Of a stretch of DNA of 64,000 nt, positions 30,015 to 64,000 are shown piece after piece. The stretch lies in NCBI GenBank assembly GCA_000092065.1, contig CP000584.1; one strand, written 5' to 3'. Made by a program: the position numbers and the translations under genes. The notes below the pieces were generated by a model. The model saw only the letters and a program-made list of their open reading frames with translations, did no database searches and was not told the origin of the DNA. Every line of letters begins with the position of its first letter. The first letter of the stretch is position 1. This stretch comes from Ostreococcus lucimarinus (taxonomy: Eukaryota).

Positions 30015-31205
30015 TTACATCTCCATTTCCTTACCAACGTACGGCTTGGCCATGTCTTCGTCATCCTTCGGGGTGTGGATGACGACGGTGTCCGGAATCG
30101 GCGTCGACGGACCGTTGCGGCCCTTCGGATCGTGGTCGAGCATAATCTTCACGCGCATACCGATGGTACCCTGGCGAAGCAAGGCGTGGCGAGTGCACGA
30201 AACGATGTATTCGCGCACCGGGTTACCGGAAGAAATCATGTAACCGTCCTTGAACTTCATCGCCTTGGCGCGTTGGCCGCGAAGCTTACCAGAGACGACG
30301 ACCTCCGCACCCTTGGCGCCAGCCTCCATGATGTATCGAAGCACGCCGTAGCACGCACTGCGCACGCAAAAAAAATGTCAATCGTCAGTCACGCGTTCGT
30401 CTACGTCGACCACATCATCTCGCGTTCGCGTCGCGCGCGCCAAAGCCCTCTCGTTTTGCCGCGTCGTCGCGTTTGAAAACCTCTCAAAGCCCTAACACGT
30501 GCGCCCATCGCACGCGCTCGGACGCCTCGTCCGTCGCTTCTGCGTCCGCGTCGCGCGTCGACGCGGACGACTAAAATTAACGCGCGACCACTCTTTGCGA
30601 TCGATCGAAGAACACACGCACCGTCGAACGGCGAGACCGCCGAGAAGCTTGTATCGCAAAGACTCGCACTGCGCGATGGCGCACAACCCGCGGTTGTTCA
30701 CCCGTTCCGCGTACAGCTCCACCGAACCTTCCGCCATCTGGAACCTGCGCTGCACGAGCGTGGTCAACTCACGAATGCGTCGACCCTTTTCGCCGAGCAC
30801 GTTCGCCGTGCGCGTGGCGCGGATGATGATTTCCGTGCGCATTGGGGTCTGTCGGACTTCCACGCCCGAGTACCCATCCTCGGCGAGCTCGCGGACGAGC
30901 ATTTCGTTGAGCTCGGCGAAGAAGACGCCGTCGGCGACGAACTGCGAGTCGATGTCGACGAACGACGTAATGTTAGTCTTCGTTCGCGTGCGTCCGCGCT
31001 CGCGATCGACGGCGTCCGCGCGCGCGCGCGTCGACTCGCGATCGATCGATCGCGACGGTGACCCTAAGCGCGACGCCGGAGCGGCATCGCGCGTTGCGGC
31101 GCCGCGCGACGCGCGACGCGAGTCACGGCGCGCGCTCGGGCGCAACGATAGATCCGCGCGCGTTCGACGCACCTTGCGCTTCTTGCTTATAGCGGTGGCC
31201 ACCAT
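30015..31205 (-). CDS. RPS3: 40S ribosomal protein S3 (uS3), 3 exons: complement(join(31173..31205,30622..30941,30015..30357))
   Basis: Exon 1 is [11 protein letters not shown] with a GTGCGC donor. Exon 2 is [60 protein letters not shown]...[13 protein letters not shown], ending in a split Arg codon (CG|T). Exon 3 is [44 protein letters not shown]...[10 protein letters not shown]. It is collinear with eukaryotic uS3. Confidence 0.85.
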
Positions 31206-34540: not shown

Positions 34541-37500
34541 TTACTCTGGTTTGAGACTCTCTGGGGAGGAGCCATTGTCTTCGTCGCTGCCAGCTCTAGC
34601 CTCTGCCCTTGACCGTCTTCGGAACACTCCTTGAGCAGACGAAAGCCAGCCAGTTAAAATACTCGCCGACGCCGTGCTGAGTGTTTTTGGACGTCTCGTA
34701 TCGAATGCCAACTCCGGATCGTCCGATGACTCAAGATCGGAAGAGCTACCAGAGTCGGAAGTGAGCGCTTGGCGTTTTGGGCCTCCGGACAGCGGCGTAT
34801 TCGCGAGGCTCATTTCCTTTTCTGCGCGCGAGCGTTGCAACCATTGACTCATCACCGAAGCAGCCACGTAAGAAACTGGTTGGCGTTCTGGTGAGGCGGA
34901 ATCACTGGACAACTGAGAAGACGAATCACCGGAATCATCCGAAAGATTCGCTTTCGGTGCAGACGGAGGCACGCTTGCGCGCATCTCTCTCGCTCTCGTC
35001 AACCAGTCTCGCATGACCATCTTTGAAGTTTGACTCATGTGCTCAGTCGTGGCGTACTTGGGTTCTGTATCAGTGTCACTTTCCGACGAGAAGTCAGTCG
35101 AAGAGAACACAGCAGTATTCGTGAGCGACGATTGTCTGTTTGCACGAAGTTGCTTAACCGCAGCCAACCAACCCGTAAGGGCGGCAGAAGAAGCTTCGGA
35201 AAGATTGACAGGCGGGAACCGTTGGAGACCAGCCTCTGTCTCACTTTCAGACGTATCAGAGAGCATGCGGAGATTTACTCCGCGTCCAGATGCTCTCGAA
35301 GCGGCGTGTGTGAGCCATATTCGCATGGCTGCTTCAGCACCCACTGATAGCTTCACTTCTCCGAAGTCTTCTTCCATATCCGAGTCTGACTCTGACATCT
35401 CACCAGCCTTCATTCTACGACGCACAGCTTTTCCGAGTTTCAGCCGCCTTGCAGTACGAGGAGATAGAATTTCTTGTAACTGATCAATGACCCAGTCCCT
35501 ATTCTTTGACATGAAAAGATGGCGGAACTGATCACTCGTGAGGTCGGCCGTCGTGACATCCATCGTTTGGAGGCTGTCGCCACCGCTATCCTCAATCACG
35601 GCTGCCATTTTAGGTACGAAAATGGAAGAAAAATCCTCATCAAGAGAATCCTCGATGATGATTTCCCCAGACGTGATCGAAGAAGTGATTCGCCAGAGGC
35701 CGAAGTGATTTGCCAAGAGGAGGGCGAGACGCTTTGCCGTGTAAGATGCGCCGAGAACCATGAGAACACAAGCCCAGAAGAGGATATCTTCAAACATGTT
35801 GTAGTTTGCTCGGAGCATCATGGAGAGAGCGAGGACGAACAAGAAAGATCCCGAGCCGCCGAGCGCAAGCACAAAGTAGAACTGACTCGAGAAGCACATT
35901 TGATCAATCGCGCGAAGACCGGGGTCAATTGATTCATCGTAAACGCGTTCGAAACCTTTCCATCGCGACGTACGATTGATGAATCGATATCGAGCGTACT
36001 TCAAATACTCGTACACCTTCCAGCCATGGAACAATTCCTGAATGTTGAAAGTTATGATGTCCATGACAATCCAGAACGGAATAATCACGACAGAGAAGAG
36101 AAGATAAATCAAAAGATCCTTCTTTCTGAAACCGTACAGGTACGACAGTCTCAGCTGGTCGTTGAAATCCCAGAAAAAGAAAATGAAGAAAGGCGTCATG
36201 TAGTTAACAGCCGTGTTTACGCCGTAAGCGGCGAGGAAGCCCATTAAATCTTCGACCAACGTATCTTCTGCATCGATTTTTTCCTCTACTTCGACGTCAT
36301 CGTCGTCACCAAAGTTAAATGGTAACAAATTCATGATGTAGTTCACGACTGCGCTGATTTTGTCTGGGAGTACGAGGGCGCAGTACGCGATGAACGCATC
36401 AAGATATACGTACTCGACCATACCCATGATAGTCTCGAAAAAGAAACCAAGGGTGAAATCTGTAAAGTCATCGGCTCCGATCGTCGCAACGCCAACGGCT
36501 GAAGCAAGTACGACCGATACTGGAGCGAGTAAGAAAGCTTCTCCCAACGCGGTTTCTATCTGCATTTCCATGATTACGTGAGCGACCTTCAAGAGGAAGA
36601 AAATGGTAAAGAACTGGACACCGAACGTATCAGTAAACGAGAACTCAATCAAGAAGACATTTGTCACGTTAACTAAGATATTCATCAAAACGAAATGACT
36701 TCGTTTCCAGACTTCTGGTTTGAACATCACTTCATCGACGTAGCGCTCGTCCTCCAATTCCTTCTCTTCTTCGTCTTTCAGTTCGGCAGGGACTAAGATT
36801 TCGGCGGCGCATCCCATCATATACATACCAGCTGTCAAAAAGCAGACTGCGTATCGACCAGCGGTCGCTTTTTCTACGACAGCTGGATCGATTTCACGGC
36901 CGATATTATCAATACTGATCGGGAACTCTGTAATGATTGGGAACGCGACAAACACGGCCCGGAGTCCGAACTGCGCTGTCGCAAACGGTAACATGCCGAG
37001 CGTGACACCCATCAGAGGTGGACCAATCATTATTCGAAGATATGGTAAGAATCGGAATCTCGGTGGTTCTTTCAATAGTGTGAAGATTCTCACGACCACC
37101 CACACAGAAAAGATCAACAACACGACGAGCATTCCGATCGCAAAGAAAAGCGCCAAGTAGAACAGGAAATCAAAAGCAAAGAAATTGAGCAAATCGAACC
37201 AACCTAGCGCTGATACCGCCACGCTAAGCGTGTAAGTACCATCGTGAGCCGTAGCGGATACGTATTCGTCCATCGTCACCGTGGCCGCGATGATTCGTTT
37301 GTCTGAGTCGGTGAATTGATAGTACAAGATCTCAAATTCAACCTTCGTCGGCATCAAACCAGCCGTCAAAACGAATCCTTCGACGGGCGCAAAAATCACA
37401 GGAATATTTTCTTGCGCCGTGATATCGGCCATGTACTTCTCTTTATTTGCGGCTGGCTCCGTCTGGTCGTTCGCCAGGGCGCTTGCTTCGAAAAGAGCGT

Positions 37501-40500
37501 CTTGACTTTCAGCCTCCGCTGTCAAGTAGAACAAGGTGTCACCCTCAGCTTCGTACCAACGCTTCTTTGCTGAAGCTTCTGTGTAGGCCTCTTCATAGAA
37601 ACAATCGATGGTTAACTCGAGCTCATCTGCAACTGCTGCTTGAACTTGCGGAGAGTATTGATTGATGAAGACTGTTTCTTCTTTTGGCACCAACGTGGTC
37701 TCACCATAACTGACAAACGTGCGATCTTCGCCAAACGTGACGGGCTTGTACGGGTTTTCAGTGAGGTGCGAAAAGAAAATATGACTGTCGAATCCGCGGC
37801 AAGCAGAAAAGAAAGGCAAGTAGTCCATCGCGAACAGCGTCTGGTCAGCCGCCCACAAACCTTCATTGAGCAGATACTTTTCTTGCTCGTACACGTCTGG
37901 AAGTGAAAGAGTGATAGTTTCGTCGGTTTGGCCATCCTCGTTCACTATCACCCAATCCTCTGCTTGCGTCGACGTTAAATCAATGTGCGCTTGGCTGGGA
38001 GAATCTTCGGCTGTTAGCACGTTTTGCTGTCGCAGATATTTGAACTTCTTCCACTCCGCACCATACGTAGAGTTGTAATCGATGGCGGCACGGGCATCAA
38101 GCCTTCTACAACCAGGATCTTGGTTAATATTGGCGCACTCGAAGTAATCGGTCGACACTGATCGATACATTGTCGAGGCCACAGGAGCATTCAAGGGCGC
38201 TTGATACTCTTCGTCAATTTCGAATGGCAAAATGGCGTGCACGGAATACGTCGGCGTTGCACTTGCACGCTCTGGAAATTCGACGTCGATGCAAATACTG
38301 TTCAAGAACGACGCACGATTATCCTCTTGATATCTACCATCCAGCATTCTCAGTTCAATTCTGAAAGGCAAATCATCCAAAGCTTGAATGGATAGTTCGT
38401 GCATACCGCGTTTCCAAACGTAGTTCCCAAAAGTTGGATTCTCAACGTTGTAGCCCGTCGCAGTACCATCGCTATTTCTCGCAAACCAGAACGGCAACTC
38501 TAAAGATTCTTGAGAAGCGGGACACTTCTTTTCCTGCTCCTCACCGGCTATGACCTTCATATTCAGCCATGTTATGCCATCGCCTACATCCCATGGCGGG
38601 CATGGCACGGACTTGTATTCGCTTGCAGGGCACAAGGTGTCATCAATCACTGGATTTGTGAAAATAAGCAGCTCGTAATGTTCGCCGTACTTCAGATTTT
38701 CGTTGATTGTCCGCCAATCAAGCCTCAATTTGGCCGTATGACCTCGAGGTAGAGTGAACTTCATCAAAGGGATATTGTTCTCGTCAACGGCGGCGATGCT
38801 GTTGTCATCTGACAGAATGAATGTCGGGTTCAGGAGTTCCCAATTTTTGTTTGTGCAACTGCCCATGCCCATGTAGTCAAATGGGTCGGTGGGTCCTGTC
38901 GCGTTTGAACTAGAAGTGTTCGTCGTATCGATCTGCAATAGAGTGCGACCTGCAGCGATTTGGCTCTCTACTTCCCGAAGCCATTCAGTGTCACGACCTG
39001 TGGCGTTGATTGTTTTGTAATATGTTTTCTCAATCAAGTCAAAACTGACGGGCATGACTCTCCAGAAAGTGATCAAATCTGCAGAGCACTCGTCCAAACT
39101 TTGTGCCGACGGAGACGACGCCGTCCCTGTGGGACATCGGTTGAGCACTTGTCCAGTTCCCGTCGGACAGAAGAAGCAAGCTTGACACGGGAACTGAGTA
39201 CGCGTAGAGTAAGACGCTCCAGCGGGACAGTAGTAACCAGCGGGACATTTGTTGAAAAATTGTGTTTCCGGAGTAGTACCCGGTCCACAGAAGTATCCGT
39301 CGGGGCACTTTTGTTCGGCAATCGATGTTCGAGCGTCGCACACGTAACCCTCCGGACACAAATCCGCTTCACCTTCTGGATCGAGTTGTAAAAGAACACA
39401 CTTGGAGGCGTCGTAAGCCTCGGTGTTGTCCGCATCGCAATAAGCAGAGTACTCGTTTAACGCAGCTGTACCTTGCCCACGAGGTTTGTTATTGCTCATG
39501 CCATCAATGGCGCACACAAGTCCTGAGTTACACGGCAAACATAACGATTCTTCGGTCAAGCCAATAGATGACGACCAGGTTCCTTTCGGACACTGACGGC
39601 ACGCAATGGAGTCCCGCGCAGAGCGGAAATAACCTGCAGGACATGCGGTTGGTTTGAATGTGCCTTCGTCGACGCACTCGTAGCCTGCAGCGCATGTTAG
39701 ACACTCCTGGAACCCTTCGTAAGGCGTATAGGTGCCCGGAAGACATGTAACGGCTGCGGAGTTACCTTGTCCAGATGTGTATGAACCGCGCGGCGCTGGA
39801 ATCGGAATGTAAGTACGTTTCGGACAGTAATGACCCTCGGTACAAGGTCTCATTGGATTATATACATCCGTCGCCGATTCAGAAACCACAGTGGAATCCC
39901 CTGTAGCCCATTCGCAGAAACTTCCTTCCTTACACGGCTGCGGTTGCTTGAAAGAACCCTCCAACACGATCGAAGTTGTTACACCCTCCGTACAGAACGT
40001 CGTGGGAGGACACGGCTTTGGTCGGAAGTTGTCAACGTTCAACGCAATTGGAGATGCATCGACAATAGCTGCCACATCAATAATTGCGAGAGGATCACGG
40101 GTGACGGTATTTTCAAGGCAGTAATGTCCGGCGGGACAACGGGTACCTGCGACGGCCAGACCTTCAGTGTCGCACACGAAGCCGGGTGTGCACACTTCGG
40201 GCGCCTCACGAGCAAAACCTGGGCAAATCGTGCCTTTTGGACATTTTTGACATGAGTCTTTGCCATAATCGGAGTTGTACTCGCCGGGAAGACATGGTTT
40301 CGGTTCGGCGTTGGCGACACCTGGACAATACATTCGCTTTGGGCATCTCAACTGCTGACCAGGAGGACAGTAATGTCCTGGAGGACACGGACCTACGCCT
40401 TGCGGTGTGATAGAACCAGGTTCACAAACATAACCGGCATAGCACTGCTGTGGAGTGGTGAAATTGTATGCGATACTCGCACTCGACACAACACCGGCGG

Positions 40501-43500
40501 TACAGTACATGCCAAATGGACAAGGTAGTGGCCGCTCGGCAACAGTGAAGTCAGTAAAGTTACTCGTTCGCGTACCCTCCAAACAATAATGGCCGGGTGG
40601 ACATAGTTTATTCGGTACAGTAAGGCCAGTAGAGTCACATACCGCACCCCTCGGACAAATGATCGGGATCATTGAGCCCGCGTCTGGCGAAATGTAGCCC
40701 ACTGGCGTTGGAAGACAGTCAGCTTGGCCGGTTCTGGGTTGGAACGTCCCTGGCGGGCATAAGGTGAAATTTTTTCCACCGCCACAGAATGCGCCTCGTG
40801 GACATAAAATGGCTTCACTTTCAGGGCAGTACGATCCAGACGGACATTGTGCGAAATGGAACAGCAGTCGCTGTTCTGAAAAGTCGACTCCATTTGTGGA
40901 GACTTCGACGAACACTGTACGAGTGCCACTTTGCTCCACGCCCGCAACACAAAGAATAGATCTGGATGACAAGAAAGTTGCTGTCGCAAGCTCTTGTCCA
41001 AATCGACACGTTAAACTGGAAGTATTGACAAAATTTGAACCAGTTATGAAAATGGGGCTTCGACTACCGCTCAGACCAACTTTCGGAATGATACCAGAAA
41101 TTTTTGGTGGAACTTGGTAGACAAACGTTGCCGTGTTGATGGTCGAAAGATCACGATCGTTCCCAGAAATGCTAATATCTGCAATTCCTAATCCTCGTGC
41201 CGGCGTGATGCACGTAAGGACGTCGCTTTGAGTGTTGTATGACGTAATTGGAAAGAAGGTGCCGATGCGGCAACTGTAACGCGCGCCATCGGTCAGGCCA
41301 TTCACAGACACCGAGAGCGTGGTTCCACCGTTCTCCGATCCTGTCTCGGGAGACACAGCGGAAATCATCAAATCGTCAATGTACTCGAACGCGGTACCGT
41401 AACTTGAAATAAAACCCGGATCGTCACGAGGAGCCATTCCAATGCCCACTCGGCGCTCAGTAGACCAAGGTGGAGTGATGCAAAGTCCAAGCGCAGACGA
41501 CACCACGTGCGCGCTTGTTTGCTCGTTGCCAAAGTAACAATAGCCAGACTCGTGCAGATTATCTCCGTCGACATGGAGTACGGTTGTTCCGCTAGCCGTA
41601 CCAATACTAGGGTGAACATTGAGAACGACAGGTGGCATGAAAACTTCAAATCCAATCGGTGTTGCAGCGTCGGGCAAAACCATGATTTCAAGAACAGTAA
41701 AACCGAATCCAGAAGGCGGCGTGTCGCAAGTGATCGTTCGCTGATCTTCAAACGTCGCCTGCGCGACCTGTCCATGTAGTTTGCAGCCTAGGTACGCGCC
41801 GTGTGGCAAGTATATTGCACTGTTGGACATCAACTTCAACGTTGTGTCTCCGGCCGCAACGCTCCTCTTCGGCGAGACAAAAGATGGGACGAGTGGAGTG
41901 AAATATTCAAAGCTACCAACCGATGCGTAATCCTTTGAGTTGTACGTCAAAGAGCCAACAACCACAGTACCATTGAGCCCAGCAGGAGAGATGCAAGTGA
42001 CAGACGTCGACGAACGCTGTTCCGAGGTGCTGATTGGACCTATAGTGCCAAACCGACAGAAGATTTCTTGTTCGGTGGCGTCTTCCGCTAAGTTTCCAAT
42101 ATGAAAAGTGAACAGATTGCCTCCGTTTTCCGACAGATATGGGTTTTCCAGACTCTGACTAAGAAAGTCGAAGTCATCCAAATATTGGAACGCCGCAACT
42201 ATCTCGGAAATATAATTTTCATCATCTCGGGGACTGACGCCAAGCGAAACCATGGGCGAATTCCCACTGAGGACAGGAGAAGTACACACACTGAGAGCGG
42301 ACGAAATGGCGTACGCTGTGGTGTTTTGATCACCGAAATGACAGAAACTTGACTCGTGCAAGTGTTCTCCGGCAACGTGGATCACGGAGGATCCACTGTA
42401 GAACCCGACCGACGGAACCATGCTTGTGACAACAGGCGGCACAAAGATGTCAAAGTCTACCCCGACGCCGTCGAGACCTATGGTAGATAACTCCACAAAT
42501 CCCGCCGAAAGAATCGGAACGGGGCAGCTGAGCGTGTATCTTACACAGTCTCTTTGATTACCGCCGGAACACGTAGATGTCCGAACAGCCTGTGACGATA
42601 GAACGGGAAATAACCCAAACATGCATCCCTTTGGCGTCGAGCTCAAACTGTGCCCGGTGGCTTCAAGGACTACGTCAGCAAGGCCCTCGTTCGAAGCTCT
42701 CCCTGGCACGACATGCATGACCGTCATATCCTCCTCGGAATAAATCAAGACAAAATTGGTAAAGTAAGAAGACGTCAAGTGAGATGACAGCCAGACCCGG
42801 ATGGCATCGGGCGACGTCGGTGAGTGCGCCGGAGTCACGAATTCAAAGCTACTTCCCGAGCTTCGCACATACATCGGGCCGATTGAGCCCACGTGTCCAG
42901 CGGGCGCATCCACCAGTTCTTCAAGTATTCCGACAGAAGTTAGCGAGGAAATTTGTATCGTGTCACCTCCAGAGGTTGCCACCGTTTCCGCGGAGATATC
43001 CAGAAGAGTCGGAGCGGGAATGTAACTGATGGACGTTGTACCCATTTCGTCGTAGTTCAAGCTTCCACCAGTATCGACGTATAACGCAATTCTTCCTTGG
43101 TTATTGGAGAAGTACGGTGACTCGCACGTCACCAAGGTCGACGAATGAACTTTTGCGGGCACATTTACGTCGCCAAAGTAGCACTGCACTGACCCACCAG
43201 CCACATCGAGCAAATCTTCACCACTGATAGTGACTAATTCACCACCAGAATTACTGATCAAAGTTGGGTATGCTGACACTAGAATCGGATCAGGTTGGAA
43301 TAAGAACAACGAATCGGTTTCATCTTTCCCAGGTGAGGCACCTAAACTTATTTGAGCGAACCCTGGGGCGTACGCGGGCATGATACACTCAGATACATAA
43401 GGATTCGTGGAGATGGACGTGGCTGAGACGAAAAATCCAGCGACGTGACACTTAATAGAAGTTTCCATTGGGTTTTCATGGAGAATACGAACAGCAACGC

Positions 43501-46500
43501 CTCCACTCACGGATCCGAATGACGGATACACCGCCGAGGAAGACACTTCGACGGTTTCGTGATAGCTGAAAGGTTGTTTCACCGACGTGAACATCTCACC
43601 GAATAAACGAGCATACATGGGAATGGTACCCGCGATGTGCGCGGGAACTCGACATTCTAGACCATTCCCGGTCAGTTGTCCGATGATGGGACCAAGACTT
43701 CCGAATTTGCAAGCACAATTGTCAAATGATTGCTGATACGGATCAACTTTGTAGTAAATTATCGCAATAGACCCTCCATCTTCGTTACTTTCTTGAGGCG
43801 ACACGTGTAAAGGATTATCTTCCTCCTTGATGTACTCAAAGACAATACCAGAGGACTCAAATTCATCGTCCGTGAGGCTTGTTGAACCACTTGACAGAAA
43901 ACTGAGAACTGCAGAGCCAGCATCATTCGCTGGTTGCTCGATCACAACTAGAGCACTTGACACAAACTGTACCGGAGAGAATTTGGTGCTTCCAAAAACA
44001 AACTTGTTGTGCGTGACTTCGTTGAAGTGAACGCCAGTCAATTTTATTATTTCTCCTCCAGCTTCTGCGCCATCATACGGCTGCAAATTAGTAATCTGCG
44101 CATGAGGTTCATAACTGAGCTGTATTTGCGAAGAATCCCACACGCTCACGTCGTGAATTTGCACCCCAACAGCGACAAAACCGGAGCTGTGCGCTGGAGC
44201 GAGACACAAAACGAGACCGTTTGACTCCACTTTTGCAACTGCCGCGTGAAGATCGAACACGCAAGCGACTGGTAAGGTCGCTAGCGAAGAAGGCAATGTG
44301 CTCGGTGAAATCATAAGCTCCACCAAAGATCCCCCATCTAACGATACCGACGTGCGGTATGGCTCAGTGAGATCTATGTTGGCAATGTATTCGTACAGAA
44401 GTGTCGTCGCCGCATTGTCACGCTCATTCATAGCCACAGTCACTGGAACTGTCGCAGGTGAATGGGCAGGCAGGATACATTCAACTTTTTCGGATGAACC
44501 CTGCGTAAGGGAAATTCCAGAGATCGTACCAACTTTGCATGATATTACGCTCAAATCCGTGGAAAAGTCTCCATAGATGTCAACCACAGCACCGCCGGCT
44601 TCCAATCCTCGCGCAGCTGGGTGATCTATTTCGAGTCCAGGAAGAAGAATGAAAGTTATTTGGAAATCCGCACTTTGTTCCACGTCGTTGTATACAAGTT
44701 GTAAAGCAGTGTCATCCTTGCCTTCGGGCGTCACACACACGACGAGCGCCGAAGAAATTACGTGTATAGATGACTTTGCAGTACCTGCACTTGTCGTGTA
44801 ACCGCACGAAGCACTGTAATTCGTACCGCCCCAGATCATATTGGATCCCGTCACATATACCAAACTTCCCCCAATCGTTGGGAATGTGAGTGGAGTCGCT
44901 CTCATGAGTTTCGGTTTGGCAACATAATGGAACTCGAGAGCTGACGACGTAAAATCTTGCAAGTTCATAGAGACATCGATCACCGTGAATCCAGATTTAG
45001 ACGCCGGAGCATTGCAAACAGTATTTGATCCGAAGATGAATGCATTCGTAGTGGTTGAACCAAACCTACACGAAAGATGACTTCCGTAGAAGTTTTCACC
45101 GAACAAAGTCACCGAGGTGCCGCCGGTAACAAAACTCGATTCTGGTATTGTCATTGATGACAACGTCGCGATCACCTTGTACTCAAATGTAGCCGCCGAT
45201 TGACTCAGCTTAATTTCAAACGCAGTATTGTGATGGAACACGTTGACTGGGACTGAACCTGCGCTGTGCGCAGGAGAGACGCAAGACGCCGCATTCATGG
45301 ACAACCATCGTCCAAGAACATTCGAAATGGTTCCAATCCTGAAAGCCAGTGAAACGTCGTTTCGAAACGCCAGGCCATCAAATGAAAGAATAGTACCACC
45401 TTGAGACGGCCCAGTCTTGGGAACTACCCGATGTATGACCGAGGAAGATGTGTTCATGAACTCAAACGGTAAGCCTGGAACCGACCAATCAAAGGCATTG
45501 TTTGAGACTGCAAGGTCATGGTATCCGACCTCCATGCTCGGAGATTCGCACATCACTTGCGAGGGTGAAATAAACGCTGCACGGAATGGAGCTAATGTAC
45601 CGAATCGACACAAAGAAGAGGGAGAAAAGTGATCACCATACACCACGATGGCTGTCCCACCGATGGACGGGCCAGACAGCGGAAGCAAGTGATCCAGCAA
45701 CACCTTCCTCGTTAAAATATCATTTGCATCGGTACTGGAGACGATGTTATTGCCGGAGCTATCGACAATTCTTATATCGTACTCGTTTACGCCGTTGTTA
45801 TCTTCGGGTAACCCACAGAGAACAGAACCATCGCTGAGGACGATGCCTGGGACCAAGGCGTCACCATTTCCAAGATTGCAATACACATCTTGACCAGGAA
45901 CAAATCCCGTACCAGTCACAGTTGCGGTATTATTATCGTTGTTTATAATTGTGGTCACTGACGCTTCAGTAGTATACAAGAAAGTCACCTGCGGACCATC
46001 AGCAAACATGGCGCCGAACTCGCTGACCATGCCGATGTCAAAATTCACCCAACCCTCTACGTGCGCAGGCGCTAGGCACCTATATTCATCTGCAGCGATC
46101 CATTCGCCCACGACAGGACCAATTGAGCCAAACTTACACGCGAGATCGTGTGAATCACTGAAAGAGTGCCCGGCAGCTGTGACTGTGGTACCGCCCTCGA
46201 CTAAACCCATTGATGGTGATAGAGCCGTGACCACTGGAGGTGGATCAAACAAAAATTGCGGCTTCATCGCTAATTCTACTGCGGTTGCTACTACCGATAC
46301 GTCCAGTGCATATGCACCTTCAAACATGCTAGGCGTTTCGCAAATCATCAACGCCGAGGAAACATGTGTTGCCGCTACGGTAGTCGTACCAAACCTACAG
46401 ACAGGATTGTCTTGCAGCAAATGCTCCCCTTCTATGTGGACTAATGTTCCACCTCCTATGGCACCAACTCTGGGCGCTATTCTAGTAATTTCAATCACGT

Positions 46501-47659
46501 CCTTTAATTCAAGCTGCACACTGTCTGATGCAAAGACGGAATATTGGAAATCTTGACCGTTCGAGGCCACCGCAACGGAGACAAAACCGATTCCAGCTGG
46601 AGCTACGCAGGTCACAGCGTTGGTTCCCGCGAGACCTGGAACTTTATGCGAGCCAAATTTACACGCAAGCTCTGGTGTTTGCACGACACTCTGTACCGTG
46701 ATAGACACATGGGAAGATCCTGCCGAAGAGACCTGGAACGGCGCGATTGCATCGACAACGAGACTCGATAGAAAAGTGAACGAGTTTGAGAATGTCACAT
46801 AGTCTCGATGATTCATCGAGACGCTCAGGGGCTTAGCCGCTAAAGAAGATGCAGGCGTCGCGCACTCCAATGTATTTTCATTCTGGTAAATCGCGGAGAC
46901 CTCAATTGCTCCGAAGCGACACCGCAACAAACTTGTCGGCGCAAAATTTTGTCCCGTCAGCGTCACCAACGTGCCCCCTTCGCCAGTACCGACTGCTGGA
47001 CTGACGCGACTTATCGACGGCGCGCCGATATAAATGTGCTGGACGCTACTGAAAGCCTCGAAAAAGTTTGAGGAAGTCAAAGACACGTCCACAGCGACGG
47101 TTCCCTTGTCGATCGAAGGTGATTCACACTTCATCAAACCAGACGAGACGATGTGCCCAGTAGTCGTGAGGTCGCCAAATCGACAGTACTGCGACACGTG
47201 CATATCAGCACCGAATACGTCTACGATACCTCCTGAAATACCATACACAGAGTTCACGGCGTCCACCTTGGCGCCACTCACAAATTGATATCCTTTTGTT
47301 CTCAAAAAGTCTCCCGTTTCATTGTTGAGCGCGAATTCGACGTTTACGAAACCCTCCGTGTGTGACGGTGCTGTGCATTTGACCGTCTCGGCGTCTACGT
47401 AATACGCCCGAACGAACTCATTATCAAACTTGCACGTGAGCTCTGCCCCTGGTATATTCTGAACCGCTGCCAGCTGCTTACTCGAGAGCGTGACGACTTC
47501 GCCGCCGCCCACGTGTCCCGCGCTCGGATACATCCATTCCACCTCTGGAATCTCAAATCCTCGAGCGCCGCACGCGAAGCACGCCGCCACCGTGATTAGG
47601 AATAAAACCAACCAAATCGCACGCGATGGACGAAACGACCTCATATCGCTCGTCCTCAT
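34541..47659 (-). CDS. Giant 4372-aa receptor-like membrane protein, single 13.1-kb exon: signal peptide; about 20-24 IPT/TIG-like repeats; ephrin-receptor/furin-like Cys-rich repeats; unknown ectodomain; about 11-TM domain; Ser/Asp-rich cytoplasmic tail with WLxxAR repeats
   Basis: Uninterrupted ORF 34541..47659. N-terminus: MRTSDMRSFRPSRAIWLVLFLITVAACFACGARG. There are more than 17 clearly readable repeats with the pattern C[RK]FG-x(15-20)-C-x-[AST]P, for example CRFGDLTTTGHIVSSGLMKCESPS and CKFGSHKVPGLAGTNAVTCVAPA. Cys repeats occupy about nt 39070-40850 (CQKCPKGTICPG, CPAGYFRSARDSIACRQCPKGTWSS, CPAGYYCPAG). Hydrophobic helices occupy about nt 35690-37210. The tail is at 34544-35690. Confidence 0.8.
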   Translation of the reverse strand: MRTSDMRSFRPSRAIWLVLFLITVAACFACGARGFEIPEVEWMYPSAGHVGGGEVVTLSSKQLAAVQNIPGAELTCKFDNEFVRAYYVDAETVKCTAPSHTEGFVNVEFALNNETGDFLRTKGYQFVSGAKVDAVNSVYGISGGIVDVFGADMHVSQYCRFGDLTTTGHIVSSGLMKCESPSIDKGTVAVDVSLTSSNFFEAFSSVQHIYIGAPSISRVSPAVGTGEGGTLVTLTGQNFAPTSLLRCRFGAIEVSAIYQNENTLECATPASSLAAKPLSVSMNHRDYVTFSNSFTFLSSLVVDAIAPFQVSSAGSSHVSITVQSVVQTPELACKFGSHKVPGLAGTNAVTCVAPAGIGFVSVAVASNGQDFQYSVFASDSVQLELKDVIEITRIAPRVGAIGGGTLVHIEGEHLLQDNPVCRFGTTTVAATHVSSALMICETPSMFEGAYALDVSVVATAVELAMKPQFLFDPPPVVTALSPSMGLVEGGTTVTAAGHSFSDSHDLACKFGSIGPVVGEWIAADEYRCLAPAHVEGWVNFDIGMVSEFGAMFADGPQVTFLYTTEASVTTIINNDNNTATVTGTGFVPGQDVYCNLGNGDALVPGIVLSDGSVLCGLPEDNNGVNEYDIRIVDSSGNNIVSSTDANDILTRKVLLDHLLPLSGPSIGGTAIVVYGDHFSPSSLCRFGTLAPFRAAFISPSQVMCESPSMEVGYHDLAVSNNAFDWSVPGLPFEFMNTSSSVIHRVVPKTGPSQGGTILSFDGLAFRNDVSLAFRIGTISNVLGRWLSMNAASCVSPAHSAGSVPVNVFHHNTAFEIKLSQSAATFEYKVIATLSSMTIPESSFVTGGTSVTLFGENFYGSHLSCRFGSTTTNAFIFGSNTVCNAPASKSGFTVIDVSMNLQDFTSSALEFHYVAKPKLMRATPLTFPTIGGSLVYVTGSNMIWGGTNYSASCGYTTSAGTAKSSIHVISSALVVCVTPEGKDDTALQLVYNDVEQSADFQITFILLPGLEIDHPAARGLEAGGAVVDIYGDFSTDLSVISCKVGTISGISLTQGSSEKVECILPAHSPATVPVTVAMNERDNAATTLLYEYIANIDLTEPYRTSVSLDGGSLVELMISPSTLPSSLATLPVACVFDLHAAVAKVESNGLVLCLAPAHSSGFVAVGVQIHDVSVWDSSQIQLSYEPHAQITNLQPYDGAEAGGEIIKLTGVHFNEVTHNKFVFGSTKFSPVQFVSSALVVIEQPANDAGSAVLSFLSSGSTSLTDDEFESSGIVFEYIKEEDNPLHVSPQESNEDGGSIAIIYYKVDPYQQSFDNCACKFGSLGPIIGQLTGNGLECRVPAHIAGTIPMYARLFGEMFTSVKQPFSYHETVEVSSSAVYPSFGSVSGGVAVRILHENPMETSIKCHVAGFFVSATSISTNPYVSECIMPAYAPGFAQISLGASPGKDETDSLFLFQPDPILVSAYPTLISNSGGELVTISGEDLLDVAGGSVQCYFGDVNVPAKVHSSTLVTCESPYFSNNQGRIALYVDTGGSLNYDEMGTTSISYIPAPTLLDISAETVATSGGDTIQISSLTSVGILEELVDAPAGHVGSIGPMYVRSSGSSFEFVTPAHSPTSPDAIRVWLSSHLTSSYFTNFVLIYSEEDMTVMHVVPGRASNEGLADVVLEATGHSLSSTPKGCMFGLFPVLSSQAVRTSTCSGGNQRDCVRYTLSCPVPILSAGFVELSTIGLDGVGVDFDIFVPPVVTSMVPSVGFYSGSSVIHVAGEHLHESSFCHFGDQNTTAYAISSALSVCTSPVLSGNSPMVSLGVSPRDDENYISEIVAAFQYLDDFDFLSQSLENPYLSENGGNLFTFHIGNLAEDATEQEIFCRFGTIGPISTSEQRSSTSVTCISPAGLNGTVVVGSLTYNSKDYASVGSFEYFTPLVPSFVSPKRSVAAGDTTLKLMSNSAIYLPHGAYLGCKLHGQVAQATFEDQRTITCDTPPSGFGFTVLEIMVLPDAATPIGFEVFMPPVVLNVHPSIGTASGTTVLHVDGDNLHESGYCYFGNEQTSAHVVSSALGLCITPPWSTERRVGIGMAPRDDPGFISSYGTAFEYIDDLMISAVSPETGSENGGTTLSVSVNGLTDGARYSCRIGTFFPITSYNTQSDVLTCITPARGLGIADISISGNDRDLSTINTATFVYQVPPKISGIIPKVGLSGSRSPIFITGSNFVNTSSLTCRFGQELATATFLSSRSILCVAGVEQSGTRTVFVEVSTNGVDFSEQRLLFHFAQCPSGSYCPESEAILCPRGAFCGGGKNFTLCPPGTFQPRTGQADCLPTPVGYISPDAGSMIPIICPRGAVCDSTGLTVPNKLCPPGHYCLEGTRTSNFTDFTVAERPLPCPFGMYCTAGVVSSASIAYNFTTPQQCYAGYVCEPGSITPQGVGPCPPGHYCPPGQQLRCPKRMYCPGVANAEPKPCLPGEYNSDYGKDSCQKCPKGTICPGFAREAPEVCTPGFVCDTEGLAVAGTRCPAGHYCLENTVTRDPLAIIDVAAIVDASPIALNVDNFRPKPCPPTTFCTEGVTTSIVLEGSFKQPQPCKEGSFCEWATGDSTVVSESATDVYNPMRPCTEGHYCPKRTYIPIPAPRGSYTSGQGNSAAVTCLPGTYTPYEGFQECLTCAAGYECVDEGTFKPTACPAGYFRSARDSIACRQCPKGTWSSSIGLTEESLCLPCNSGLVCAIDGMSNNKPRGQGTAALNEYSAYCDADNTEAYDASKCVLLQLDPEGEADLCPEGYVCDARTSIAEQKCPDGYFCGPGTTPETQFFNKCPAGYYCPAGASYSTRTQFPCQACFFCPTGTGQVLNRCPTGTASSPSAQSLDECSADLITFWRVMPVSFDLIEKTYYKTINATGRDTEWLREVESQIAAGRTLLQIDTTNTSSSNATGPTDPFDYMGMGSCTNKNWELLNPTFILSDDNSIAAVDENNIPLMKFTLPRGHTAKLRLDWRTINENLKYGEHYELLIFTNPVIDDTLCPASEYKSVPCPPWDVGDGITWLNMKVIAGEEQEKKCPASQESLELPFWFARNSDGTATGYNVENPTFGNYVWKRGMHELSIQALDDLPFRIELRMLDGRYQEDNRASFLNSICIDVEFPERASATPTYSVHAILPFEIDEEYQAPLNAPVASTMYRSVSTDYFECANINQDPGCRRLDARAAIDYNSTYGAEWKKFKYLRQQNVLTAEDSPSQAHIDLTSTQAEDWVIVNEDGQTDETITLSLPDVYEQEKYLLNEGLWAADQTLFAMDYLPFFSACRGFDSHIFFSHLTENPYKPVTFGEDRTFVSYGETTLVPKEETVFINQYSPQVQAAVADELELTIDCFYEEAYTEASAKKRWYEAEGDTLFYLTAEAESQDALFEASALANDQTEPAANKEKYMADITAQENIPVIFAPVEGFVLTAGLMPTKVEFEILYYQFTDSDKRIIAATVTMDEYVSATAHDGTYTLSVAVSALGWFDLLNFFAFDFLFYLALFFAIGMLVVLLIFSVWVVVRIFTLLKEPPRFRFLPYLRIMIGPPLMGVTLGMLPFATAQFGLRAVFVAFPIITEFPISIDNIGREIDPAVVEKATAGRYAVCFLTAGMYMMGCAAEILVPAELKDEEEKELEDERYVDEVMFKPEVWKRSHFVLMNILVNVTNVFLIEFSFTDTFGVQFFTIFFLLKVAHVIMEMQIETALGEAFLLAPVSVVLASAVGVATIGADDFTDFTLGFFFETIMGMVEYVYLDAFIAYCALVLPDKISAVVNYIMNLLPFNFGDDDDVEVEEKIDAEDTLVEDLMGFLAAYGVNTAVNYMTPFFIFFFWDFNDQLRLSYLYGFRKKDLLIYLLFSVVIIPFWIVMDIITFNIQELFHGWKVYEYLKYARYRFINRTSRWKGFERVYDESIDPGLRAIDQMCFSSQFYFVLALGGSGSFLFVLALSMMLRANYNMFEDILFWACVLMVLGASYTAKRLALLLANHFGLWRITSSITSGEIIIEDSLDEDFSSIFVPKMAAVIEDSGGDSLQTMDVTTADLTSDQFRHLFMSKNRDWVIDQLQEILSPRTARRLKLGKAVRRRMKAGEMSESDSDMEEDFGEVKLSVGAEAAMRIWLTHAASRASGRGVNLRMLSDTSESETEAGLQRFPPVNLSEASSAALTGWLAAVKQLRANRQSSLTNTAVFSSTDFSSESDTDTEPKYATTEHMSQTSKMVMRDWLTRAREMRASVPPSAPKANLSDDSGDSSSQLSSDSASPERQPVSYVAASVMSQWLQRSRAEKEMSLANTPLSGGPKRQALTSDSGSSSDLESSDDPELAFDTRRPKTLSTASASILTGWLSSAQGVFRRRSRAEARAGSDEDNGSSPESLKPE

Positions 47660-48588: not shown

Positions 48589-49266
48589 ATGGTGACCCCG
48601 CTCATCAAGCACAAGATCGTCAAGAAGCGAACGAAGACGTTCAAGAAGTACCAGTCGGATCGGTACAAGCGCATCGCGAACGTACGTGATAGAAAACGAT
48701 GCGAAATATTCGAATGGCGTCGACGCGCGCGGCGAGAGCGATGATGCGCCGCGCGACGCGCGAGGGTGGTTGAGAACGCGATGACGTCCGGGCGAGGAGG
48801 ACAGACCCTAGCGCGGAAGGCGCCGCGCGCGGGTGGACACGACGGCGTCGAAAACGAACGAGAGACGATGGAATCTCGATCGAAGGCGAGATAAGACCTT
48901 GAATGAGCGCGAGACTGACCGAATGATCGCTTGTCGGCTTTGTACGATGCACAGACGTCATGGAGACGCCCGAAGGGTATTGACTCTCGCGAGCGCCGCA
49001 AGTTCAAGGGCTTGCCGCCGATGCCCAACATCGGTTACGGTTCGGCGAAGAAGACGCGACACTTGTTGCCGAACGGTTTTTTGAAGTTCGTTGTCCACAA
49101 CGTCAAGGATCTCGACCTCCTTCTCATGCACAACCGCAAGTACTGCGCTGAGATTGCGCACAACGTCGCGACCCGCAACCGCGCGGCCATCGTCGAGCGC
49201 GCTCGTCAACTCAACGTGAAGGTGACGAACGCGTCTGCTCGTCTCCGCAGCGAAGAAGACGAATAA
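48589..49266 (+). CDS. RPL32: 60S ribosomal protein L32 (eL32), 2 exons join(48589..48681,48955..49266)
   Basis: Exon 1 is [31 protein letters not shown] with a GTACGT donor at 48682 and a cacag acceptor at 48954. Exon 2 is [71 protein letters not shown]...RLRSEEDE*. The ...TSW... length matches plant-type eL32. Confidence 0.85.
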
Positions 49267-56662: not shown

Positions 56663-57084
56663 TTAAAGCTCCACGCGCGCGGTTTCCCTCTCCTGCCCCG
56701 GTCTATAAAAGCCTCGCTCGTTCAAATACGTCTCCACGCGCTCCACCGTCCACTCGCTCGTCAGTTTCGCCGTCTCCACGTTGTTCCCGCGTTCGTCTTG
56801 CATGTGCAGCGACGGCGGGTGTCCCGGCGTCCACGTCACGCCCACGCGTTCGCCGTACCCCCCGACCTCGACGACTTCCTTCAGGAACGTCTTGATCTCC
56901 GGGAGGCGGTTCAATTTTCATCCCGGGCACGATTGGAATTGCGCCCGCGCGAACGCGCCTTCGCCCGCGGTCCCGCGCGCGACGCGCGCGAGCGCGACGC
57001 ACGCGGCGACGACGCGCGCGGCGACGACGCGACGCGCGGGACGACGACGCGTCGTCGTTCGCGTCGTCGTCGCCGTCGACGTCA
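56663..57084 (-). CDS. SELENOM: Selenoprotein M (SelM) with in-frame UGA selenocysteine codon at 56918-56920 (minus strand)
   Basis: ORFs 56918..57343 and 56663..56914 are in one frame, separated only by TGA: ...RVVAARVVAACVALARVARGTAGEGAFARAQFQSCPG-U-KLNRLPEIKTFLKEVVEVGGYGERVGVTWTPGHPPSLHMQDERGNN...ERGFYRPGQE. This matches animal SelM around the redox motif (CGGUQLNRLKEVKAFV). ATG 57084 gives a signal-peptide-like N-terminus. Confidence 0.8.
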
Positions 57085-57201
57085 TCGCCGAACGCGCGAC
57101 GCGCGATGTCGCATCGTCGCGACGTCGACGTCCCGCAGACGCTCGAGCGCGCGTTATCCGCATCGGCGTCGCGGCATCGCGCGACGCGGACGCGAGGTGC
57201 G

Positions 57202-60998: not shown

Positions 60999-61111
60999 CG
61001 CCGCCGACGCGAACTCCCGTGTGGCGCCAATCTCGCAGGTCTTCGCAGAGTCGTTATTCACCAGCGTCCACGATGAGCGCCTCGGCGCGCGTCGGGCGAT
61101 CGACGCGCGCG

Positions 61112-63333
61112 ATGGAGACGAAATCAAAGCCAAACTTCATCGTCGGCTTCGCGTATTTACTCGGTGCGTCACGACGACGACGGCTGCGAGAACCGTCGCG
61201 CGCGATGCGCGTCAAACGACACCAACGACATCGTACGCGCTCGACGCGACTCGCGTCGCGACTCGACTGACGACGAGGTTTTCATCGCGAAGCGACGCAA
61301 CTCACGTCGAAACTTTTACCGTTCTTCATCAACACCCTGGTGGCCCGCCGACTCACGCCGGAGGAGTTCGGCGTTCCAACCGTGCACTTTTATCTGCTGT
61401 CCACGGCGATTCTCACCACCCGCGAAGGCTTTCGTCGAGCACTGATGAGAGATTCCGTGAAGGACGCCTCGCTCGGGTACGCCTGGCTCGTACTTCCGAT
61501 CGGTGGCTTTCTTTCCATCGTCATTCCTCTGGGCGTGATTTGGTCGCAAAACATATCCACCCGCGAACCGTACGGCTTGGCGCTACTCTACTACGGCGCC
61601 GCAGCGTTCATCGAACTGTGCGCGGAGCCATATTACATTCGAGCGATGCGAATGTCGGCGTTCAAGCTGAGACTATTCGCAGAAACCACGTCCACGGTCC
61701 TTAGAAGTGTCTTGACGTACGCGCTGGTTTCAGCGAACCAAAACAACGTCGTCATGGCGTTTGCGTACTCGCAGGTGAGAGTTAATTTTATTTCACGCGG
61801 GAATTAAATCACACCGCATCGTACCGCGACTGACGAGAATTTCGTGGTGCAGTTGCTGTACGCCATATCAATGGCGGTGATATACGTATGTGCTACGACG
61901 AAAGCGCCGGAGAAGTCGATGTTGAGAGATGGTGCAACAGTGCAATTAATTGGTATTTTTTCTCTTCAGGTGAGTGATTTCTCGTGCACAAAACGCGTCT
62001 CGACTCACGATCACACATACGCAGGCTGTGTGGAAGCTCGTTTTGGCGGAAGGAGAAAAGGCTGCTCTTATAGCCGTCGCCGCTGCGGATGAAGTCGGCG
62101 TCTACGGCCTCGTGGCTTCCCTCGGGTGAGTTGGAACTATTTCGATAATTAATTAATTGTCGACTAAATATTTTGAAACAGCGCGGCATTCGCACGATTG
62201 GTGCTACAACCTTTTGAAGAGGCGGCGTTTGTTATTTTCACGCGCAGTGTCTCTTCGAAGTCGCAATCATCGAAGGAAAAGGAAGTCTTCAATGCATTAT
62301 TACGCGTAGCAATTATTTTCGGGAGCACGGCGGTGAGTGTGTGATCTTACGCGAGCCTGTCGTCTTTGAACGAGCGGAACTGACTCACTTACGCTAACAG
62401 GCATTCATGGGACCTCATTTCTCGTGGTTAGCGCTGAGGTGAGTCGCTTTGGCGTCAGCTTTTGAGGTGTTGTATTTAATTATTTCGGTTCGTCGACAGA
62501 ATTTTATATGGTGAACGGTGGGCAAACCAGCATTTCGCGTCTGAAACGCTCGGTTTCTACGCCATTTTGATTCTACCACTTGCGGTAAGTATTGCGTCGC
62601 GCGTGCTACGGTGGCAATTGGTTTCTCAACGCGCATGCGTGGGAATTAATTATTTATGCGTTCTCGTGGGCGTGAATTATTTCATTAACTCTGACTTGTC
62701 GCTGCTTCGCAGGTGAACGGTATCACGGAGGCTTTCGCCCACGCGGTGATGGTAAGTGATCATTTATAGCATTTCATTGCGTTTGACTGATTTACGACCG
62801 TTACACAGTCCTCGTCCGAATTAAGCTCGTCTAATATTTGGCTTCTCGTGTGTTCTTTCGTCAATGTGGTACGTGCTCACTCTTTGCTACGGCTAGCCAT
62901 CCGACTAATTTGATGAATTAGGGCGGTACTTTGATGCTTCAGCGTAGACTTGGGCCAGTTGCCTTGCTCGTGGCGAACGCTTTGAGCATGATCGTCCGAA
63001 TCACGTTCACGAGCTCGTATATACGCAAGCGCTTTGCGAGCCAAAAGGCAAATGCACGCTTGAAGTTCCTCTCAAAAACATATCTTTCGGTACGTATGAT
63101 GCGGCGCGAACCACTCAATCTATAACACTGAACCACTTTACGCGCAGGCCTTGGTCATTTTCTCGATCGTTGCCAGGCTCTCGGACCAGGCGTTACGTCG
63201 TGACCCGAGCGCCCTCGGTTTACTAGCGCACACTGGGTGCGGGGCGATAATACTCGCCATTCTCCTCGTCACGCTCTACTTTTACGAGCGCGATGCGTTC
63301 TTGTACTTATCGAGACATGATAAAAGCGATTAG
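61112..63333 (+). CDS. RFT1: RFT1 (oligosaccharide-lipid flippase homolog), 11 exons: join(61112..61163,61278..61774,61853..61969,62025..62125,62182..62332,62401..62438,62500..62584,62713..62751,62809..62868,62922..63089,63148..63333)
   Basis: Exon 2 QLTSKLLPFFINTLVARRLTPEEFGVPTVHFYLLSTAILTTREGFRRALMRD matches the RFT1 N-terminal TM1 region. Later exons give ...AEGEKAALIAV..DEVGVYGLVASLG|AAFARLVLQPFEEAAFVIF.... All introns are GT..AG (donors GTGAGA, GTGAGT, GTAAGT, GTACGT) and 53-128 nt long. The total CDS is 1494 nt (497 aa). Exon 1 and the exon 10 acceptor are the least certain. Confidence 0.7.
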
Positions 63334-63600
63334 CGCCTTCTCATGTCTTCAAACGTAGCGCATTGTGAAATTCATCGTTTTCACACTGCACGAGCCTTGA
63401 ACGATTTCTGACGAAGCCCCAGCCCAGCGCATCTCTGTCTGACCTAGATCACTGCTTCGCCGCAGTCTGTGACGCTACGCCGCCGGCGAAGACGCGCGTG
63501 AGCGCGTATTTGGTTTAATACGTACACGTAGACGCAAAGCGCAACGCTTTCGCGCCTCTTAGTGCAACCCACGCGCGGCGATCGACTTGAGAACGACGCC

Positions 63601-63915
63601 ATGAACTTTGCCCGTCGTGCCGTTTGCACGGCTGTACGAGGTGCGCAGCGCACGTCGGTGCGCTCTTACGGTGCGGGTCCACCGGGAGGATACTTCGCGG
63701 AGGGTACGCAAACGGGCCGGAACGGTTACCTGTTCGGCGAAACTCCGCCGGCACCGGGCAAGCGGAGAGTTTGGGAAGACTGGGAGGCGCCGTGGTACGG
63801 TGCACTCACCCTCGCCACCGCCATTCTCTGCGTTGGTCTCCAAGCCAAGCCTGACACGAGGATGACGTCTTGGGCTAGGGAGGAAGCCGCGCGCCGGTTG
63901 GAAGCGGAAAAGTAG
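63601..63915 (+). CDS. NDUFB11: Complex I subunit NDUFB11/ESSS with mitochondrial presequence
   Basis: MNFARRAVCTAVRGAQRTSVRSYG...GYLFGETPPAPGKRRVWEDWEAPWYGALTLATAILCVGL...KPDTRMTSWAREEAARRLEAEK. The ESSS signature is YLFGE-PP...WE.WE and a single TM, with a C-terminal RM..W.R.EAxR. Confidence 0.7.
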   Translation: MNFARRAVCTAVRGAQRTSVRSYGAGPPGGYFAEGTQTGRNGYLFGETPPAPGKRRVWEDWEAPWYGALTLATAILCVGLQAKPDTRMTSWAREEAARRLEAEK

Positions 63916-64000
63916 AGTCGCTTTCGCGCGCAAAACTTAGTCGAGTAGCCAAGCGTTCGGCATTGACAACCCAACGCGTTGTAAATTGTTTTGTAGAGCT

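Follow-up and report, generated by a model that had tools for sequence, protein, structure and literature searches.

The ten introns of RFT1 in Ostreococcus lucimarinus: a conserved multi-intron gene in an intron-poor chromosomal region

The RFT1 gene of Ostreococcus lucimarinus lies on the plus strand near the end of the 64,000-nucleotide (nt) stretch of contig CP000584.1 (GenBank assembly GCA_000092065.1) analysed here, which is called the window, and its coding sequence (CDS) is divided into 11 exons by ten introns. Pfam scans and neighbouring gene calls place about 29 other genes in the window, nearly all of them single long open reading frames (ORFs). These include HisIE, apyrase, PIG-N, RED, LOG, Rcd1, CTR9, RPS3, TMF and RPL32, as well as a HEAT protein, GrpE, Prp31, a selenoprotein, an MFS transporter, Fe-SOD, ankyrin proteins and ESSS. 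At least six introns were found outside RFT1, at most two per gene. An earlier account of the window made from the letters only (the sequence-only reading) had described RFT1 as an intron-dense gene of 11 exons and ten short introns among genes with zero to two introns, and this description holds: the RFT1 introns measure 53–129 nt, and at the rate of the other genes (five coding introns per about 52.6 kb of their coding sequence) 0.14 introns would be expected in RFT1, so that the Poisson probability of ten or more is about 7e-16.

Removal of ten GT-AG introns between positions 61112 and 63333 leaves an open CDS of 1479 nt, assembled from exons of 52, 482, 117, 101, 151, 38, 85, 39, 60, 168 and 186 nt. 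The spliced product matches the Pfam family PF04506 (Rft-1) with an E value of 8.1e-84 and 282.6 bits (cut-off 23.8); the match is full-length, spanning residues 12–482 of 492 and profile positions 5–506 of 512. Its nearest named relative is the O. tauri 'Protein RFT1 homolog' (74% identity), which has the same flanking genes. The closest relatives are from Mamiellales, the sequence is typical of the green lineage, and no named Micromonas or Bathycoccus entry was found among the protein search matches. RFT1 is a membrane protein of the endoplasmic reticulum (ER) in the lipid-linked oligosaccharide pathway for N-glycans; judged by family membership alone, the product would take part in the handling of Man5GlcNAc2-PP-dolichol in the ER. 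The protein itself is in no way unusual; what stands out is the structure of its gene and the public models of it.

The sequence-only reading and the GenBank model both start RFT1 at 61112 (492 amino acids, aa). A transcript-derived protein of 505 aa (P0058) begins at an ATG at 61073, 13 codons (39 nt) upstream, and the N-terminal peptide M[SA]xARV[GT]R read from this start is conserved in O. tauri and in the lineages labelled D and F; the start at 61073 is therefore the likelier one. The public O. lucimarinus CCE9901 model (XP_001417191/ABO95484; P0055) is identical to the spliced product over the first 301 residues, including a Q at a residue where environmental transcripts have K, and ends within intron 5, giving 304 aa instead of 505. 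The model of O. tauri RCC1115 (L003, 10001–12248) is translated through introns and split into genes of 420 and 107 aa. Both public models need correcting.

Transcript contigs from three independent samples, L014 (JGI 3300019261), L015 (SRR7814521) and L016 (SRR11178182), match the window at 99.8–100% and omit precisely the ten intron intervals, which confirms all ten introns to the base. All ten RFT1 introns are thus GT-AG introns that are removed from the mature mRNA, probably as U2-type introns processed by the single spliceosome of the cell. In transcript contigs of the other two of the five samples, L001 (SRR7814522) and L002 (DRR699210), introns 2–10 are spliced and intron 1 is kept. The retained frame meets a TGA at 61268–61270, inside the GACTGACG branch motif, and the retained form should therefore be non-productive. 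Single transcript contigs (L001 and L014; region 63334–64000 of the window) also span RFT1 and the downstream ESSS gene, and L014 adds the antisense cactin gene; these joined transcripts indicate overlapping untranslated regions (UTRs) or read-through in a compact genome.

The transcripts also bear on the explanation that the introns are annotation or assembly artefacts or that the locus is a foreign, horizontally acquired island of low guanine-plus-cytosine (GC) content. The locus GC of 0.51, compared with 0.61 for the window without its TIG gene, and the mutual discordance of the public gene models could be taken in this way. However, the transcripts omit exactly these ten intervals, and metagenomic contigs repeat the DNA at 99.9% identity (99.92% over the last 10.4 kb of the window, from which they continue for a further 10 kb). 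The protein is a green-lineage RFT1 nearest to those of Mamiellales, and intron positions are common to green algae. The explanation is refuted, with next to no probability left to it.

The gene structure was compared among seven Ostreococcus lineages, namely O. lucimarinus, O. tauri and five further lineages from metagenome contigs, with one representative per lineage. A metagenome scan with exon 2 yielded 39 loci, which comprise O. lucimarinus and five lineages at 81–87% protein identity. The O. tauri locus can be aligned over its whole length, and GT and AG are present at each of the ten orthologous positions; when the projected introns are taken out, the lineage representatives retain an intact CDS of 1479 nt (1476 in O. 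tauri). The lengths of the introns hardly vary among the lineages. RFT1 exons are 71–78% identical without indels, whereas intron cores are 41–47% identical with many gaps; the intact CDS and this contrast in divergence provide independent comparative support for the gene model. Several intron features are also preserved: intron 4 has 18–30% GC in every lineage, the branch motif of intron 2 lies 19–20 nt from the 3' splice site in all seven, and the intron 1 donor is GTGCGT in six of seven. Donors of the short introns fit GTRNGT (3.4 bits over positions +3 to +6), and GTGCG occurs in 6 of 63. The comparison within Ostreococcus proposed by the sequence-only reading thus finds 10/10 positions kept in seven lineages, and the ten-intron arrangement predates the divergence of these lineages (Table 1).

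Table 1. Coordinates and properties of RFT1 introns and selected exons, and of other features of the window.
Feature	Coordinates	Strand	Length	Phase	Donor	GC	Branch motif or remark	Length in seven lineages
RFT1 coding span	61073–63333	+					stop TAG 63331–63333	
RFT1 intron 1	61164–61292	+	129 nt	1	GTGCGT	64%	GACTGACG, 22 nt from 3' splice site	114–148 nt
RFT1 intron 2	61775–61852	+	78 nt	0	GTGAGA	46%	GACTGACG, 19 nt from 3' splice site	76–79 nt
RFT1 intron 3	61970–62024	+	55 nt	0	GTGAGT	51%		54–55 nt
RFT1 intron 4	62126–62181	+	56 nt	2	GTGAGT	27%	TAATTAATTAATT core	56–57 nt
RFT1 intron 5	62333–62400	+	68 nt	0	GTGAGT	51%		58–78 nt
RFT1 exon 6 (smallest)	62401–62438	+	38 nt				exact block in 5/5 transcript contigs	
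RFT1 intron 6	62439–62499	+	61 nt	2	GTGAGT	44%		49–61 nt
RFT1 intron 7	62585–62712	+	128 nt	0	GTAAGT	48%		122–129 nt
RFT1 exon 8	62713–62751	+	39 nt				exact block in 5/5 transcript contigs	
RFT1 intron 8	62752–62808	+	57 nt	0	GTAAGT	37%		52–63 nt
RFT1 exon 9	62809–62868	+	60 nt				exact block in 5/5 transcript contigs	
RFT1 intron 9	62869–62921	+	53 nt	0	GTACGT	45%		53–60 nt
RFT1 intron 10	63090–63147	+	58 nt	0	GTACGT (GTGCGT in O. tauri)	50%		50–59 nt
Coiled-coil gene intron	7458–7716	+	259 nt		GTGCGC	70%	GACTGACG, 30 nt from 3' splice site	
CTR9 intron	24249–24419	+	171 nt		GTGCGT	69%	GACTGACG	
RPS3 intron 2	30358–30621	-	264 nt		GTGCGT	60%	GACTGACG	
RPS3 intron 1	30942–31172	-	231 nt		GTGCGT		GACTAAC motif; directly after codon 11	
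RPL32 5'UTR intron	48293 or 48453 (donor) to 48586	+	294 or 134 nt		GTGCGG		ends 3 nt before ATG	
RPL32 coding intron	48682–48954	+	273 nt		GTACGT	60%	GACTGACC	
TIG-repeat gene	34541–47659	-	13 kb				intronless	
SelM/Sep15-like gene	56663–57100	-					in-frame TGA 56918–56920	

The big outlier chromosome of Mamiellales, which carries the low-GC region BOC1, is chromosome 2 in Ostreococcus, chromosome 14 in Bathycoccus prasinos, chromosome 1 in Micromonas commoda and chromosome 2 in M. pusilla. Two intron populations have already been described in O. lucimarinus (PMC2483917; PMC3491373; PMC3879977). Canonical Ostreococcus introns have a mean length of about 187 nt, a GTGCGTG donor and a GACTGACG branch site; in introns outside chromosome 2 confirmed by expressed sequence tags (ESTs), the GTGCGTG donors carry 4.8 bits and ACTGAC is present in 87% (PMC2483917), and EST data give about 1.25 introns per intron-containing gene there (PMC2367439). 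Short introns with a preference for GTRNGT donors (1.9 bits) and with weak branch signals characterise the low-GC half of chromosome 2 (PMC2483917). The introns of the low-GC region of the outlier chromosome (BOC1) are 40–65 nt long, AT-rich, numerous per gene and confined to that region (PMC3491373; PMC3879977), which is without colinearity (PMC3491373). In Micromonas, BOC1 introns are defined as <75 nt and <43% GC, a threshold made for a GC-richer genome. The two classes that the sequence-only reading recognised in the window are real, although not new.

RFT1 is a mosaic of both classes. Intron 1 fits the canonical class by donor, branch motif and GC, and intron 2 by its branch motif alone, whereas introns 3–10 have GTGAGT, GTAAGT or GTACGT donors and, in O. 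lucimarinus, neither a GTGCG donor nor an ACTGAC branch motif. Compared with canonical introns, introns 3–10 are 2–5 times shorter and 10–40 GC points lower, and their putative branch sites lie 13–22 nt instead of 27–39 nt from the 3' splice site. The sequence-only reading had placed all ten introns in a short, low-GC class with these three donors, which is correct for introns 3–10 but not for intron 1, whose GTGCGT donor, GACTGACG motif and 64% GC belong to the other class.

The canonical class is also represented in the window by introns of RPS3, CTR9, the coiled-coil gene and RPL32, which were deduced from reading frame and splice motifs. Five of these comparator introns were scored (all but RPS3 intron 1); they have 60–70% GC and carry GACTGAC[GC] 27–39 nt from the 3' splice site. 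RPS3 intron 1, with GACTAAC, escaped a scan limited to GACTGAC. The RPS3 junctions apparently restore stretches conserved in human RPS3: one ending in FVADGVFF after the intron 1 junction, and AVRR/ACYGV across that of intron 2. Of the properties that the sequence-only reading had assigned to introns outside RFT1, the high GC content stands, but a length of 200–275 nt is contradicted by CTR9 (171 nt) and a uniform GTGCGY donor by the coding intron of RPL32 (GTACGT). A scan of the window for further canonical introns found nothing new, with an all-frames-stop filter that was too strict. AT-rich 50-nt dips outside RFT1 are intergenic or lie in the open TIG frame, and none breaks the frame of another gene.

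The nine short introns of RFT1 (introns 2–10) resemble BOC1 introns in several respects. Seven of them are 53–68 nt long (the exceptions have 78 and 128 nt), they are many per gene, their GC is lower than that of the flanking exons, their sequences are unique, their positions are kept between species, and their donors follow GTRNGT instead of GTGCGTG. They differ from BOC1 introns in that only introns 4 and 8 (27 and 37%) fall below 43% GC, that most have, by eye, a CTRAY-like putative branch motif, and that in several the CTRAY motif stays at a constant distance across lineages. They also share their gene with a canonical GTGCGT/GACTGACG intron, and this gene, with ten introns next to neighbours with two at most, is set in a block of normal GC that is colinear and otherwise intron-poor. 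The likeness to outlier-chromosome introns proposed in the sequence-only reading accordingly extends to length, number and donor motif, whereas GC content (two of nine below 43%) and the branch motifs seen by eye count against it.

The branch motifs were recorded in two ways. A CTRAY scan gave putative motifs 13–22 nt from the 3' splice site in introns 1, 2, 7, 8 and 9; by eye, near-matches were seen in the same range in introns 3, 4, 5 and 10 (CTCAC, CTAAA, CTGAC and CTGAA) and none in intron 6. A CTRAY-like motif is thus found in eight of the nine short introns by eye, compared with four (2, 7, 8 and 9) by the stricter scan. On the by-eye reading, most short introns would have a CTRAY-like branch site about 13–22 nt from the 3' splice site. 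In addition, 15 of the 55 AATTA and four of the six TAATTA sites of the window fall in the 743 nt of RFT1 intron. AATTA/TAATTA cores are located in introns 2, 4, 6 and 7 (e.g., 62145–62158, 62473–62485 and 62644–62657) and recur at matching places in O. tauri and other lineages. These AATTA-type cores may function as intronic splicing signals.

Several lines of evidence point to a location of RFT1 outside BOC1. SOD, Ank (minus strand), RFT1 and ESSS follow one another in this order in 7/7 lineages, and the window is colinear with O. tauri from 51.6 to 63.9 kb (>12 kb). Because of this microsynteny and colinearity, the normal GC of the flanks and the intron-poor neighbours with canonical introns, we argue that RFT1 lies outside BOC1 and has done so since before the radiation of the genus. 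In the order of the proteome RFT1 is protein 1834, and with published gene counts of 684, 489, 589 and 524 per chromosome this rank would place it on chromosome 4, not chromosome 2, with an imperfect fit of the physical position. A candidate explanation in which the window ends at the edge of the low-GC BOC1 block was rejected: the 10 kb downstream has 0.49–0.69 GC per kb, as heterogeneous as the window itself, and contains long uninterrupted genes.

The sequence-only reading had described RFT1 as an AT-richer island. This applies to introns 2–10, which have 27–51% GC (pooled 45%) compared with about 53% in exons and 64% in intron 1, but the dip is modest. The RFT1 CDS has a GC of 0.526, with values at the three codon positions of 0.52 (GC1), 0.43 (GC2) and 0.63 (GC3), and this GC3 is at the low end of, but inside, the range of the neighbours (0.62–0.82). 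The TIG ORF, with GC 0.50 and GC3 0.51, lies well below every neighbour, and no other low-GC feature of the window is as large. PIG-N, likewise a multi-pass ER protein encoded in the window, has 57.7% GC and no introns. Across lineages RFT1 GC3 is 0.55–0.63, and in all five newly sampled lineages the locus is 5–8 GC points under its upstream flank. The dip is probably composed of three contributions: AT-richer introns account for one third of the locus, GC1 and GC2 are depressed by the hydrophobic protein, and GC3 is low-normal. RFT1 therefore does not appear to be a foreign or recently moved island.

An older move was also considered, in which RFT1 once lay in the BOC1 (mating-type) region and left it before the radiation of the genus, together with its introns and lower GC. 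The BOC1-like length, number per gene and GTRNGT donors of the short introns, as well as the GC deficit of the locus and the GC3 values across lineages, would be in keeping with such a move. The microsynteny in seven lineages and the colinearity with O. tauri are not, BOC1 being without colinearity (PMC3491373); furthermore, intron 1 and the intron 2 branch motif belong to the canonical class and not to that of BOC1, branch motifs can be recognised by eye in most short introns, only two of nine are below 43% GC, and RFT1 GC3 is inside the normal range of the window. No relative with RFT1 in a BOC1 setting turned up, in protein searches whose matches included no named Micromonas or Bathycoccus. 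Relocation, which the sequence-only reading had raised and for which there is no positive evidence, is thus very unlikely.

Other sources of the introns were examined through their sequences. Several introns in one gene of Mamiellales, some at positions absent in other green algae, recall the introner elements of Micromonas. However, blastn-short comparison of each RFT1 intron with the whole window gave only chance matches of 11–25 nt and simple repeats. Within this 64-kb window, the scope of the introner test, the RFT1 introns are alike neither one another nor other sequence, and an introner or repeat origin was rejected. Unlike introner elements, they are mutually dissimilar and fixed in position across a deeply diverged genus, with three positions common to distant green algae. 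Non-coding RNA within the introns, intron 7 especially, was likewise rejected: in an Rfam scan no family passed its gathering threshold anywhere in the window, the only relaxed match was a chance 5.8S match on the opposite strand, and no C/D box pair was seen by eye. A conserved hairpin that would shorten intron 7 was not supported. RNAalifold gave no consensus pairs in six lineages, and single-sequence fold z-scores ranged from +0.9 to -3.6 (0.25 in O. lucimarinus), without consistent excess stability. The length of intron 7 and of its orthologues in L003, L036, L039, L043, L052 and L059 is steady (122–129 nt) despite the saturated sequence, and no known RNA or conserved structure accounts for this.

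Deeper history was approached by mapping introns onto a protein alignment with four intron-rich references, Elliptochloris bilobata, Chlorella sorokiniana, Chlamydomonas incerta and Closterium sp., whose exon structures were obtained by threading annotated proteins through the genomic loci. Intron 1 shares position and phase with all four references, intron 2 has an exact positional match in Elliptochloris, and intron 3 has exact matches in Chlorella and Elliptochloris. In C. incerta, the comparison with Chlamydomonas suggested in the sequence-only reading thus gives a match for intron 1, and the counterpart of intron 3 is one codon off. Intron 4 occupies the same codon as a Closterium intron in another phase, an ambiguous match. 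Introns 5 and 7 are 11 and 7 nt away from reference introns without an exact match, introns 6, 8 and 9 have no counterpart in the four references, and intron 10 is near an Elliptochloris intron in a poorly aligned stretch. These shared positions indicate that introns 1, 2 and 3 are ancestral, and to these three alone the ancestral intron-rich structure envisaged in the sequence-only reading can be extended. Introns 4–10 would be either ancestral introns that other lineages have lost, or else introns gained long ago on the branch to Ostreococcus.

In the latter case, introns 4–10 might have arisen by a burst of insertion in the 3' half of the gene in the Ostreococcus/Bathycoccaceae lineage, only introns 1–3 being ancestral. 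Consistent with this, positions 5–10 are unmatched in Elliptochloris, Chlorella, Chlamydomonas and Closterium, seven of the ten introns are in phase 0, the tiny exons (38, 39 and 60 nt) are grouped in the 3' half, and P0027, from another Mamiellales, has an intron at a different nearby site. However, the introns do not form an introner-like family, being mutually dissimilar. Moreover, every reference has several private RFT1 introns and two positions common to all four references are missing from Ostreococcus; because private introns occur in each reference, unmatched positions are the norm for RFT1 and do not separate gain from differential loss. Such a burst is an unlikely explanation. Neither relocation nor gain of the 3' cluster has positive support here.

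Related sequences show additional structures. P0016, a metagenomic read-through ORF from another Mamiellales, has an insertion at intron 1, is continuous over intron 2 and ends at the intron 3 position. Isoforms P0027, P0028 and L018 (a related Mamiellales transcript) have introns at two other sites. P0116, a GC-rich RFT1 relative on a Logan contig of 3570 nt, carries in its genomic ORF a pair of in-frame insertions of about 150 nt at sites unseen in other species, which are reminiscent of Micromonas introner elements.

Two neighbours of RFT1 deserve mention in their own right. The TIG-repeat gene is one unbroken ORF of 4371 aa with at least 15 IPT/TIG repeats. The SelM/Sep15-like gene has an in-frame TGA in a C-P-G-U motif, and its frame runs on for about 84 codons to a stop at 56663–56665; the gene is therefore a selenoprotein gene. 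No selenocysteine insertion sequence (SECIS) element was found for it in the Rfam gathering scan.

Overall, RFT1 is probably an ordinary single-copy, vertically inherited gene that kept a multi-intron structure while its neighbours lost their introns. Genome-wide intron stripping in Ostreococcus would have spared RFT1, leaving one canonical intron and nine near-minimal GTRNGT introns with AT-richer cores, all older than the genus. The short introns would be recognised across the intron, aided by the drop in GC and by the AATTA-type cores.

Several points weigh against this account of retention. Introns 5–10 (six of ten) have no exact counterpart in the four references, and retention is demonstrated for three introns. 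The introns are densest in the 3' half, which is opposite to the remnant expected from 3'-biased, reverse-transcriptase-mediated loss. Two GC-rich relatives have an uninterrupted RFT1 ORF, P0004 on a genomic contig with flanking genes and P0115 as a 439-aa ORF on a 3.5-kb contig. The chromosome number of RFT1 is deduced from proteome order, and there is no explanation of why RFT1 in particular escaped intron loss.

The existence of two intron classes is textbook knowledge for Mamiellales, and the RFT1 gene is otherwise ordinary. What is new is that the short intron class is stable and correctly spliced in a standard chromosomal context, which is a modest exception to a known rule and not a new type of element. 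Whether RFT1 is a long-lived exception to the confinement of short, weak-signal, multi-copy introns to BOC1 is a more doubtful matter, and we would propose it only tentatively. If it were such an exception, and if such genes proved very rare outside BOC1, the intron class would depend on the gene itself, through its own intron density, and not on the chromosomal domain, and the exception would speak against the idea that spliceosomes gather at the intron-rich region; or else RFT1 would be the trace of an old escape of the gene from the mating-type region. According to a proposal by Irimia and Roy (2008), degenerate Ostreococcus introns are tolerated solely where the genome is intron-rich. The nine non-consensus short introns of RFT1 are spliced correctly in an intron-poor, normal-GC setting and have been kept throughout the genus, which suggests that such introns do not depend on the local chromosomal context.

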